DNA from: Pseudomonadales bacterium
GTDB taxonomy: Bacteria; Pseudomonadota; Gammaproteobacteria; Pseudomonadales; UBA7434
Reading direction: 5' to 3'
Assembly: GCA_965263235.1 (NCBI GenBank)
Contig: OZ253667.1
Span: 2,491,910 to 2,555,909 of the forward strand
Length of the DNA stretch: 64,000 bases
Positions 20,793 through 22,758 of this stretch are shown here, in pieces; positions within the stretch are counted from its first letter, which is position 1; each line of letters begins with the position of its first letter. The notes beneath the pieces were generated by a model. The model did no database searches. It had not been told where the DNA came from and worked only from the letters and a program-made list of their open reading frames with translations. A program made the translations under genes and the position numbers.

Positions 20793-21743
20793 CTATCCAG
20801 TGATTGAGGATGTACTGGGCGCTGGGGATTGTTCTTCTTTTTGATACTCTTTTAACTTACGCCACACGGTTGTTGGCGGTAAGTTTAAAAGCTCGGCTGC
20901 CTGCTTTTGATTTCCTTCGGTAAAGTCTATCGCCATGTGAATTAAGACTTCTTCCACCTTTCTTTGTATTTCCCTGGCATCAATGCCTGCGCCATAAATT
21001 GAGGGCGTAACTTTGGTAATGCTTTCCAGCTCTTTTTTGTACCGGTACTCTTTTGACCATGGCAGATAGGAATAAATAAAAAATAGCTGGTGCTTAGTTT
21101 CTGTATACAACAGCATCGCTATCATGCCCGTAATCGACAGCGATAAAGCGCAGGTTGCATTCACCTCATAGCCCATCGCCATCATTGATAAAGATACGAC
21201 AACAACGAGCGCCGGCGGAACAACAGCTATCAACATAGCCATACATCTTTTTGCCTTTAGCCTGTCGTTTTGCCTTGTGCCAAATGCTAACAGGCCTAGA
21301 GAAGATAGGAGCCCAATGATAAAAAAGGTGGTAAGCAGATAGTAGTAATCACCGGCTACAGCGCGAACCGAATAGCCTATTGATTGAGTTCCCGCTACAG
21401 TCCATGGAGTCAAAGCAAGCACAGCCAGACATGCAGCCACTAAAAAAAGCAAACCTTTGAATAACGTGTGGGCTTTAACGCCCGCCATTTCTACGCTTAA
21501 CAGTAAAAGCGCAGAAACAGCAACGACCGAGGCAGAATAACCAAACCTCATCCATCCTAGCGCATCTTCAGGGTTGCCCACCAACAGCGAATACATAAGC
21601 TCGCAAACATTGATTGCAAACAACGAAACAAAGAATACAACTACAGGCCCGTTTTTAAAGAGGCTCTTATAGTCAATATGAATAGCTATAAGAAACTTTA
21701 TGATGATCGCCGCGATTGACGGCAGTGAATAGATGGTCAACAT
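20793..21743 (-). CDS. Membrane one-component regulator: HisKA_7TM-like sensor fused to a Fis-type HTH
   Basis: About seven hydrophobic helices incl. GYSVRAVAGDYY; C-terminal VEEVLIHMAIDFTEGNQKQAAELLNLPPTTVWRKLKEY; no kinase or AAA+ domain. Confidence 0.8.
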   Translation of the reverse strand: MLTIYSLPSIAAIIIKFLIAIHIDYKSLFKNGPVVVFFVSLFAINVCELMYSLLVGNPEDALGWMRFGYSASVVAVSALLLLSVEMAGVKAHTLFKGLLFLVAACLAVLALTPWTVAGTQSIGYSVRAVAGDYYYLLTTFFIIGLLSSLGLLAFGTRQNDRLKAKRCMAMLIAVVPPALVVVVSLSMMAMGYEVNATCALSLSITGMIAMLLYTETKHQLFFIYSYLPWSKEYRYKKELESITKVTPSIYGAGIDAREIQRKVEEVLIHMAIDFTEGNQKQAAELLNLPPTTVWRKLKEYQKEEQSPAPSTSSITG

Positions 21744-22758
21744 TATTATCGAACGAGCAAACCATGCTCGTATATCCTATCGTTAAACCGCTTCCCCCTG
21801 ACAAGATCAGCATCTTATCATTCCGGTTAAACCCGGTCAATGAAATCGAAACGGGCATGGTGGCCGAGGTAATGTTGCCAAGCAACGGGTATGTTTGCGT
21901 GGACTTATCCAGCGGCACACCAGCAATCTTGCACCAAAGTTTGTGCGGAGCCTCACCAACCTGGTGACAAACAAAGTGATCGATATCTTCTGGAGTGCGA
22001 CCCAACGTTTTATAAACATTTTTTATTCTGTTCTTATGCATGCGCGCAAAGGTCTGGGAAATACTTTTCATATGCATATGCCCGTGAAGCCCATGCTCGT
22101 TACGAGTGTAGCTACACAAATCAGCATACTCTCCGGCAGAATAAAACTGCATATACTCCAGGCCAGTATTGTCATTCCCACGCTGAACCACAAAAGCGCC
22201 ACCGGCATCGCCGACGGTCAAGATGCCAACCCACTTATCAAATTCCTCTCTTGTGACTTTCGGCTCGCTTAGCCTGTTGAGCGCAGCGTAGGCCAGCTCA
22301 GATGACTTCTCTCCAGTACATACCAGCGCTGTCTCGATCTTACCGCTAAGGATTTTTTCATTAGCGTAATCCAGCCCATTCATCATGCCGTGACAGGCGT
22401 TGCTGACATCGAAACAGTACGCATTTTTGGCGCCGATAAAATCCTGCACTCTATGCGCGGTGGCCGGCTCCACCCAGTCACCATCAATCCCGCAATAGAC
22501 AATGAGATCGATATCCAACGCCTCGACGCCGCTTTGGCACATGGCATTGATCGAAGCTTCGATTGCCAGGTCGGACGGCTTGGTTAATAAATCGGCTACG
22601 CGCCGCTCGATGATGCCTACCTTGTTCGAAATAAAGTTATGCGGTACTCCAAAGCGCTTTTCGCTATCAATTGACTGTAAAAGGTCATCAGAGTGAACAC
22701 GCTTTTCAGGAATTGCAGCGCCCACACCGACAATTTGGGTTTTGAATAAACTTTTCAT
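21673..22758 (-). CDS. OleA-like acyl-CoA condensing enzyme (KAS III/thiolase fold)
   Basis: DWVEPATA, FDVSNAC, HQV, GNI, GGSG; AAGGAG RBS before the ATG at 22758. Confidence 0.85.
   Translation of the reverse strand: MKSLFKTQIVGVGAAIPEKRVHSDDLLQSIDSEKRFGVPHNFISNKVGIIERRVADLLTKPSDLAIEASINAMCQSGVEALDIDLIVYCGIDGDWVEPATAHRVQDFIGAKNAYCFDVSNACHGMMNGLDYANEKILSGKIETALVCTGEKSSELAYAALNRLSEPKVTREEFDKWVGILTVGDAGGAFVVQRGNDNTGLEYMQFYSAGEYADLCSYTRNEHGLHGHMHMKSISQTFARMHKNRIKNVYKTLGRTPEDIDHFVCHQVGEAPHKLWCKIAGVPLDKSTQTYPLLGNITSATMPVSISLTGFNRNDKMLILSGGSGLTIGYTSMVCSFDNNVDHLFTAVNRGDHHKVSYSYSY

Follow-up and report, generated by a model that had tools for sequence, protein, structure and literature searches.

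The subject of this analysis is a pair of genes in a Pseudomonadales bacterium (GTDB lineage UBA7434; assembly GCA_965263235.1). They lie on the minus strand at positions 20793-22758 of the window, i.e., the whole 64,000-nt stretch of contig OZ253667.1 that was analyzed (positions 2,491,910 to 2,555,909), and they consist of two open reading frames (ORFs): upstream KS, which encodes an OleA-like condensing enzyme, and downstream R, which encodes a regulator with seven transmembrane (7TM) helices and a helix-turn-helix (HTH) domain. The evidence presented below establishes that KS and R are a two-gene functional unit of condensing enzyme and 7TM-HTH regulator. A first-pass annotation, made from the sequence alone, had described an operon of two overlapping genes at this position, and the ORFs bear this out:

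KS, 21673..22758, minus strand: OleA-like ketoacyl-ACP synthase III (KAS III)/thiolase of 361 aa, identified from the ORF, Pfam, NCBIfam, PDB sequence matches and an AlphaFold2 (AF2)/Foldseek comparison.
R, 20793..21743, minus strand: 316-aa membrane protein with seven transmembrane helices within residues 4-215, a beta-hairpin at 116-130, a linker of ~40 aa and a C-terminal Fis/NtrC-type HTH_8 domain at 256-305.
KS/R overlap, 21673..21743, minus strand: 71 nt, by coordinates, in which the 3' end of KS runs over the 5' end of R in a different frame.
Shine-Dalgarno sequence of KS, 22765..22770, minus strand: AAGGAG, 6 nt ahead of the ATG at 22758, read from the sequence.

The frame of KS is open from 22800 to 21673; the start at 22758 (MKSLFKT), as given in the first-pass annotation, fits both the N-termini of homologs and the AAGGAG motif 6 nt upstream. 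Because the N-terminus of R is conserved in its relatives, the ATG at 21743 is supported as well, and the 71-nt overlap with KS is therefore taken to be real. An overlap of ~74 nt recurs in both complete pairs of another genome of the same genus, G015 (G and L numbers denote sampled genomes and loci, and G000 is the genome of the window). In other lineages the two genes are mostly separate, with spacings from -58 to +669 nt and a median of 87.5. The tail of KS that overlaps R is a genus-specific C-terminal extension, and its residues 348-361 have a predicted local distance difference test score (pLDDT) below 50 in the AF2 model, i.e., the last ~14 residues are predicted to be disordered.

Linkage of KS and R across genomes

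The KS alignment served as query for a scan of public genomes, limited to a single genome from each species, which yielded 124 confirmed relatives, the best 80 of which were examined. R lies directly downstream of KS and on the same strand in 74 of the 77 loci that could be assessed among these best 80 of 124; the 74 comprise 65 with a short form of R (~300 aa), eight with a long form (~870 aa) and one in which R is cut by the end of the contig. Two further loci have R nearby in another orientation, a single locus has no R, and in three the downstream DNA is too short for assessment. Judging from record titles, the carriers are marine Gammaproteobacteria and include Cellvibrionales, Pseudohongiella, Exilibacterium, Pseudomaricurvus, Agarilytica, Marinomonas transparens, Arenicella, SAR86 and others. 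Cultured species are among them, namely Marinomonas transparens, Pseudomaricurvus alkylphenolicus and Exilibacterium tricleocarpae, the last of which has two paralogous pairs.

In an evenly drawn sample of 401 genomes from the order, in which R was searched for with a profile from a 50-row alignment, there were 18 KS-family places distributed over 13 genomes. R follows directly on the same strand in 15 of these (15/16 assessable); the remaining three are two places at contig ends and one, in G167, whose R is on a different contig. Within the genus the module occurs in only G000 and G015 (2/21 genomes searched), the latter containing two complete pairs and a third KS at the end of a contig.

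Quick maximum-likelihood trees of KS and R (LG+G4, SH-aLRT support) give the same clades, including two types of paralogs that coexist in three genomes, and branch lengths in R are about twice those in KS. At least eight assemblies among the best 80 of 124 hold two or three loci each; in L120 two pairs stand back to back, and at another locus KS is followed by two R genes. No conserved third gene was found: the next gene falls into clusters of at most 13 of these 80 loci, which reflects clade-specific synteny, and the annotated neighbors are varied (RND and membrane-fusion-protein (MFP) efflux components, aldehyde dehydrogenase, HMG-CoA reductase, glutathione S-transferase, kinases and GGDEF-EAL proteins). 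The linkage of KS and R is tight and ancient, and the two genes have co-diverged. The first-pass annotation had staked its proposal on the two genes co-occurring elsewhere, which they do in both samples and with congruent trees. KS-R is a self-contained two-gene module that has been inherited both vertically and horizontally, and it is real, widespread and apparently uncharacterized.

Efflux genes adjoin the pair in 5 of the 20 loci that were fetched, all from one Cellvibrionales-related lineage: RND and MFP genes are divergent from KS in L042, L045, L049 and L050, and an MFP gene is present at L054. These AcrB-type RND and HlyD-family genes could be exporters of the product or a regulated target.

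The condensing enzyme

KS matches the Pfam families ACP_syn_III (41.6 bits) and ACP_syn_III_C (43 bits). Its best NCBIfam model is NF006720 (OleA, EC 2.3.3.20), on which it scores 183.9 bits, below the cut-off of 285; it also falls below the cut-off of the fabH model TIGR00747 (121.5 vs. 292.1 bits) and scores 28.9 bits on the StlD/DarB model. The top PDB sequence matches are Xanthomonas campestris OleA (E ~3e-27, about 25-30% identity), with FabH chains from 1e-22 and worse. Structural comparison ranks the candidates in the same order: for the AF2 model of KS (pLDDT 91.2), Foldseek returned X. campestris OleA at every listed rank to 26 (TM-score 0.85/0.90, root-mean-square deviation 2.1-2.6 Å), followed by FabH and PqsD (TM-score 0.77-0.80).

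The motifs that the first-pass annotation had quoted are all in the KS translation and align to their OleA counterparts in the HMMER alignment to Xanthomonas OleA chains (DWVEPATA with DYLEPSTA, FDVSNAC with FDVANAC, HQV with HQV, GNI with GNI), and the insert LNRLSEPKVTREEF pairs with LERMTSPDVTEEEF of OleA. The catalytic residues, numbered from MKSLFKT, are Cys122, His265, Asn295 and Glu97-Pro98. KS thus has the Cys-His-Asn triad by which OleA is recognized, and the Glu of its Glu-Pro corresponds to X. campestris Glu117, for which E. coli FabH has Phe. All five residues (E97-P98, C122, H265, N295) are invariant in alignments of 12 (A4) and 42 (A5) sequences that include true OleA. In the R-linked proteins of A4, His123 is nearly invariant, giving NACHG where OleA, with Leu after the Cys, has NACLG.

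The available text of PMC7064751 and PMC4578411 describes the Glu as reaching into the active site of the partner subunit, where it is the base of head-to-head condensation in OleA and is essential in PpyS, and states that such a Glu is not described for other ketosynthases. OleA itself condenses two acyl-CoAs to a 2-alkyl-3-keto acid and hydrolyzes p-nitrophenyl esters, according to the available text of PMC7064751.

As to whether KS should be called OleA, the comparison cuts both ways. The earlier label "OleA-type" is apt in that OleA is the closest relative in sequence and fold and the Glu-Pro is invariant; but because the NF006720 score lies under the cut-off that true OleA passes, the sequence comparison places KS in a family sister to OleA and not in OleA proper. 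Four more KS-family proteins (those of the R-linked loci L040 and L051 and the database homologs P0051 and P0028, context being established for L040 and L051) score 172-224 bits on this model, all under the cut-off, and a positive control, the OleA of an oleABCD cluster in G159 from the same order, scores 443.5 bits. In public records, the proteins are named only "ketoacyl-ACP synthase III", in one case "acyl-CoA:acyl-CoA alkyltransferase", or not at all.

KS had also been described as an orphan, and this holds. A Pfam scan detected no ole, ACP or other pathway genes near the pair in the window, and neither near the window pair nor in 20+80 related loci did we find oleB, oleC, oleD or oleC/D-like genes. 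The best match to the OleC model in G000, at 78 bits, is a generic acyl-CoA ligase (732 bits for the control in G159), and G000 has no match to the OleD model (control 409 bits).

Two further observations concern related genes. The oleABCD-type cluster of G159 (L060, G159:C6:96000-112000) occupies approximately 3956-8710 on the minus strand and encodes OleA, an alpha/beta hydrolase, an olefin beta-lactone synthetase (731.5 bits) and a 2-alkyl-3-oxoalkanoate reductase (OleD, 408.3 bits). No FabH of G000 passes the TIGR00747 cut-off, which is reached in 4 of the 5 genus genomes tested, and its only other KAS III-like gene (C1:2025044-2025907) scores 144.8 bits.

The membrane regulator

R has two Pfam matches, to HisKA_7TM (PF16927; 30.2 bits, cut-off 28.6, residues 10-211) and to HTH_8 (PF02954; 43.8 bits, cut-off 22, residues 261-300), and the same scan returned no kinase (HisKA/HATPase_c), receiver or AAA+ family at E<=0.01. 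The gap of ~40 residues between the last transmembrane helix and the HTH leaves no room for an AAA+ sigma-54 interaction domain. An AF2 model built on a 50-row alignment (pLDDT 92, predicted TM-score 0.85) has the seven helices, with the beta-hairpin between TM4 and TM5, and a three-helix HTH. The earlier reading of this protein as a 7TM sensor joined directly to an HTH_8 domain, with no kinase, receiver or AAA+ domain between or beside them, is therefore upheld by both Pfam and the model. Because Lys and Arg are concentrated in the loops after helices 1, 3, 5 and 7, the N-terminus would be outside and the HTH cytoplasmic.

We assessed conservation in an alignment of 67 rows, consisting of the window R together with 66 R proteins of the short form, all encoded at KS loci; relative to the window R, the rows are only 22% identical in the median. 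Despite this low figure, several positions are strongly conserved, mostly within helices or at helix ends: K16 (91%), N45 (87%), E48 (100%, 67/67), a Tyr at 68/69, G131, Y134, P176, N195 and P228.

Among PDB sequences, Fis chains were the best but weak matches (E=0.02), and NCBIfam returned weak matches to the HTH ends of NtrC, LuxO, PrdR and Fis. A complex prediction with two copies of R scored 0.29 against a mark of 0.42, which we do not interpret. We claim no homology to G-protein-coupled receptors (GPCRs), for which the Foldseek matches reached just TM-scores of 0.4-0.49.

The relatives of R were gathered by an exhaustive hidden Markov model (HMM) search, since a word-index homolog search, too coarse for so fast-evolving a protein, gave only two; at least 139 clusters (50% identity) of R-like proteins match at E<=1e-30. 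In the ESM Atlas, the clusters to which R belongs are named "hypothetical protein". Other Atlas clusters, of ~320-357 aa, combine HisKA_7TM with a LuxR-type (GerE) HTH, and the few members with a recorded phylum belong to Bacteroidota or Bacillota. Proteins in which a seven-helix sensor is joined directly to a DNA-binding domain may form a wider uncharacterized class.

The long form of R (~870 aa) has the same 7TM and HTH_8 parts with ~550 residues between them, and was seen downstream of KS in L103, L105-L107, L109, L111, L112 and L128 and in the database proteins P0220, P0235 and P0268. Its match to ZraR (E=1.1e-5) spans the last part of the AAA+ module and the HTH, and one member has a weak match to Sigma54_activ_2. 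The short R may have arisen from an ancestor resembling an enhancer-binding protein by loss of the AAA+ domain, or the long form by its gain.

The region upstream of the pair

The following features lie between KS and the genes divergent from it:

Imperfect inverted repeat and candidate operator, 22790..22843, unstranded: 32-85 nt upstream of the KS start, found by a repeat search.
Divergent intergenic region between KS and csrA, 22759..23432, unstranded: 674 nt, containing a sigma-70-like site on the plus strand at 22925-22953.
csrA paralog, 23433..23639, plus strand: 68 aa, divergent from KS, with Pfam and NCBIfam matches.
Doubtful csrA, 23130..23330, plus strand: 66-aa ORF with no Pfam or NCBIfam match.

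The arms of the inverted repeat are 21 nt long and 86% complementary, with the perfect core TGAAATCG-N12-CGATTTCA. As an operator this repeat is a lead and not a demonstration, and it is by inference from the sequence that R would bind there. A promoter scan of 22759..23432 gave three sigma-70-like sites, with 5.6 expected by chance, and so provides no evidence by itself.

When 76 regions upstream of KS were compared with a control set of 122 intergenic regions from elsewhere in the same loci, the most enriched hexamers upstream of KS were GTAGGA/TCCTAC (29 observed vs. 5.7 expected), followed in second place by TGAAAT/ATTTCA (63 observed vs. 18.4 expected). Of the 76 upstream regions, 14 contain at least two TGAAAT/ATTTCA sites, as does 1 of the 122 controls, and 300 shuffles gave a mean of 2.5 and a maximum of 10 such regions, as against 14. 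We do not propose a regulon for the hexamer inverted repeat in G000, since its three sites there are no more than chance would give (0-4).

A perfect palindrome, GTAGGA-N4-5-TCCTAC (often TGTAGGA...TCCTACA), stands upstream of KS in nine loci (L085, L087, L091-L094, L097, L104 and L130). It lies mostly 168-237 nt from KS, although only 19 nt in L085, and 4 of the 9 loci are titled Pseudohongiella or Pseudohongiellaceae. On sequence grounds, it is a strong operator candidate for the Pseudohongiella-titled clade; it is not present in G000.

The divergent gene at 23433..23639 is a true CsrA (PF02599, 78.3 bits with a cut-off of 27; NCBIfam NF002469, 89.6 bits), and is one of four CsrA genes in the 2.98-Mb genome of G000, the others being at C1:410337, 1842652 and 1864438. 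Both complete pairs of G015 also have a divergent CsrA-like gene, such that the association holds for 3/3 pairs in the genus; in the other fetched loci, L040-L051, we detected no CsrA at a distance of 8 kb or less from the pairs. The first-pass annotation had named two divergent csrA genes as the output of the system: the one just described stands, and 23130..23330 as a second csrA is unverified, having no Pfam match at E<=1 and only a weak, in-register BLASTP match to the neighboring CsrA (E=0.017, 8/35 identical, 23%).

In contig C12 of G015, a 187-aa ORF divergent from a KS-R pair (L053:6614-7177, minus strand) fuses CsrA (43.8 bits) to a cold-shock domain (CSD, 43 bits). To our knowledge, a CsrA-cold-shock fusion has not been described before.

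Surroundings of the pair in the window

The four ORFs adjoining the pair have no Pfam match, and the next neighbor identifiable by Pfam is a DUF1722/2-thiouracil desulfurase gene. By eye, we take the 225-aa ORF at 24897..25574 to be NfuA-like and the 1230-aa ORF at 25727..29419 to be MetH-like. Orthologs of the flanking genes in the genus are 56-59% identical and occur in other contexts, making synteny uninformative.

A 272-aa ORF on the plus strand (window 16483-17301) resembles, when read by eye, an IS3-family transposase OrfB. It is followed at 17323-17511 by a short tandem repeat, with (RQY)n and (LAV)n as its translations in opposite frames. From this repeat to ~23700 the GC content is 0.40-0.46, vs. 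0.48-0.51 in the flanks. The KS-R module may sit on an acquired island.

Discussion

Our principal reading, to which we assign a probability of roughly one half, is that a lipid synthesized by KS is sensed by R, which in turn exerts feedback on transcription; the product, the sensing of a ligand, the operator and the action of the lipid, be it between cells or within its producer, are all points that we infer. KS retains the triad and the Glu-Pro base, which are all that OleA needs for the non-decarboxylative, head-to-head Claisen condensation, and would most likely join two acyl thioesters to form a 2-alkyl-3-keto acid; we propose this product because there are no OleBCD genes to process it. 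The keto acid would then decarboxylate to a ketone, or a pyrone would arise if one substrate were a beta-ketoacyl thioester, and either compound would be hydrophobic and partition into the membrane. There it could be bound by the 7TM bundle of R, in which the polar intrahelix residues K16, N45 and the invariant E48 are conserved. Lipid-bound R would switch the binding of its HTH at the promoter region upstream of KS, thereby closing the feedback loop, and in this genus might act also on the divergent csrA paralog.

Several observations weigh against this reading. KS does not always accompany R: 4 of the 19 full-length R places in the order sample are solos with no adjoining KS. R stands without KS as a second copy in G352 and in G208 and G375, and in G167 the pair is split over contigs; the genes adjoining the solos include no alternative synthase. 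The window R has Gly at residue 68, a position occupied by Tyr in 96% of the 67 aligned relatives. A search of the R model against the PDB with Foldseek gave no match at E<=0.001 and only weak GPCR-like ones, and a ligand pocket in the 7TM part, for which there is no solved analog, is therefore hypothetical. As for the proposed operator, the regions upstream of KS are AT-rich in general and come from loci that are themselves related, and the three occurrences of the hexamer inverted repeat in G000 compare with 0-4 after block shuffling. The csrA association, finally, is confined to only this genus.

A bolder form of the same reading, which we regard as tentative and on the whole somewhat unlikely, is that these genes represent a new signaling family, cell-to-cell or membrane-lipid, that is widespread in marine Gammaproteobacteria. 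KS would then supply a ketone or pyrone autoinducer, perceived by a GPCR-like 7TM receptor that is fused to its DNA-binding domain and dispenses with kinase, G protein and second messenger; different pairs would use pair-specific signals, and in this genus the output would enter the Csr network. By analogy, quorum sensing has in its favor the synthase-receptor logic (as in LuxI/R and PpyS/PluR), several diverged pairs per genome, the solos and a patchy distribution. To be counted against it, together with the points above, is that a condensation product formed from two long chains would not be soluble enough to diffuse from cell to cell.

A different explanation is that KS-R is a module for membrane homeostasis, in which R responds to a physical or chemical condition of the membrane or to a hydrophobic compound from outside, not to the KS product, and switches on KS to make a ketone or neutral lipid with a structural or protective role. 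The linkage data given above underlie this explanation too, a long-chain product would remain in the membrane of its producer, and the products of the OleA pathway are membrane lipids, according to the available text of PMC7064751. The solos, moreover, imply that R can work with no adjoining KS. Nevertheless, the presence of more than one diverged pair in a genome (8 assemblies have 2-3 loci) and the co-divergence of each R with its own KS are easier to understand as pair-specific recognition, and a module with so patchy a distribution (2/21 genus genomes) seems unfit for a core function. We consider this explanation fairly unlikely.

We judge it quite improbable that the pair is a small biosynthetic cluster, in which KS makes a bioactive metabolite, e.g., an alkyl-pyrone of the pseudopyronine/photopyrone type, R is a pathway-specific regulator that may sense a target or stress, and efflux pumps export the product. 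The available text of PMC4578411 has the Glu-bearing, head-to-head ketosynthases PpyS and PyrS making pyrones unaided, and RND/MFP genes do stand beside the pair in 5/20 fetched loci; but there are no efflux genes in the window or at most loci, and a 7TM membrane protein would be an unusual means of pathway-specific control. This explanation also overlaps the principal reading, photopyrones being signals themselves.

Very improbable, and contradicted by the data, is the idea that KS is an ordinary OleA or the FabH of the cell with R as an unrelated neighbor: NF006720 is its best NCBIfam match and G000 lacks the FabH found in 4/5 genus genomes, but KS falls under both cut-offs (183.9 vs. 285; 121.5 vs. 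292.1), G000 has no OleC or OleD, occurrence in 2/21 genus genomes marks KS as accessory, and adjacency to R in 74/77 loci excludes chance.

Among characterized systems, OleA of the OleABCD olefin/beta-lactone pathway (X. campestris; PDB 3ROW, 4KTI, 5VXD, 6B2R) has the thiolase fold, triad, Glu-Pro base and insert in common with KS; unlike OleA, KS has no OleB, OleC and OleD partners and is paired instead with a 7TM-HTH gene. The proposed logic is that of PpyS/PluR (photopyrones) and DarABC/PauR (dialkylresorcinols) of Photorhabdus, in which a hydrophobic signal made by a ketosynthase has a cognate receptor, a dedicated transcription factor; PluR and PauR are soluble LuxR-type receptors, whereas R is embedded in the membrane by seven helices and has an HTH of the Fis type. 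PpyS is a stand-alone KAS III-type enzyme, and the feature that it shares with KS is the Glu base (E105 of PpyS, according to PMC4578411).

In its genetic organization, KS-R is similar to LuxI/LuxR, with adjacent genes in variable surroundings, several diverged pairs, receptor solos and co-divergence, although the protein families are unrelated and release of the KS product from the cell is hypothetical. As a one-component regulator whose DNA-binding domain is tethered to the inner membrane, R resembles ToxR, TcpP and CadC. These have an N-terminal winged-helix domain, one transmembrane helix and a periplasmic sensor, whereas in R seven transmembrane helices come first and the HTH_8 is at the C-terminus. 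NtrC-family bacterial enhancer-binding proteins likewise end in an HTH_8, but R differs from them in having no receiver and AAA+ domains. Neither HTH_8 nor 7TM is mentioned in the available main text of PMC10269533.

A literature search returned no title or abstract opening that describes a ketosynthase paired with a 7TM-HTH_8 protein, although members of the family may be present in Fig. S5 and the tables of PMC7064751 and in Table S4 of PMC4578411, which lay outside the text searched. In the parts of the literature that were accessible to the search, HisKA_7TM is mentioned in connection with archaeal kinases only.

If the principal reading is correct, R would represent a new class of bacterial receptor, in which a polytopic 7TM sensor is wired directly to DNA, and KS would put OleA-type chemistry to a new use. 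The module is found in lineages (Cellvibrionales, Pseudohongiella, Arenicella and SAR86) that abound in the ocean but have been little studied. Because the module is compact, with only two genes, it is directly testable in E. coli and could yield a portable lipid biosensor. And even if it served only for membrane-lipid feedback, a function would be provided for a large group of proteins whose present annotations are "ketoacyl-ACP synthase III" and "hypothetical protein".

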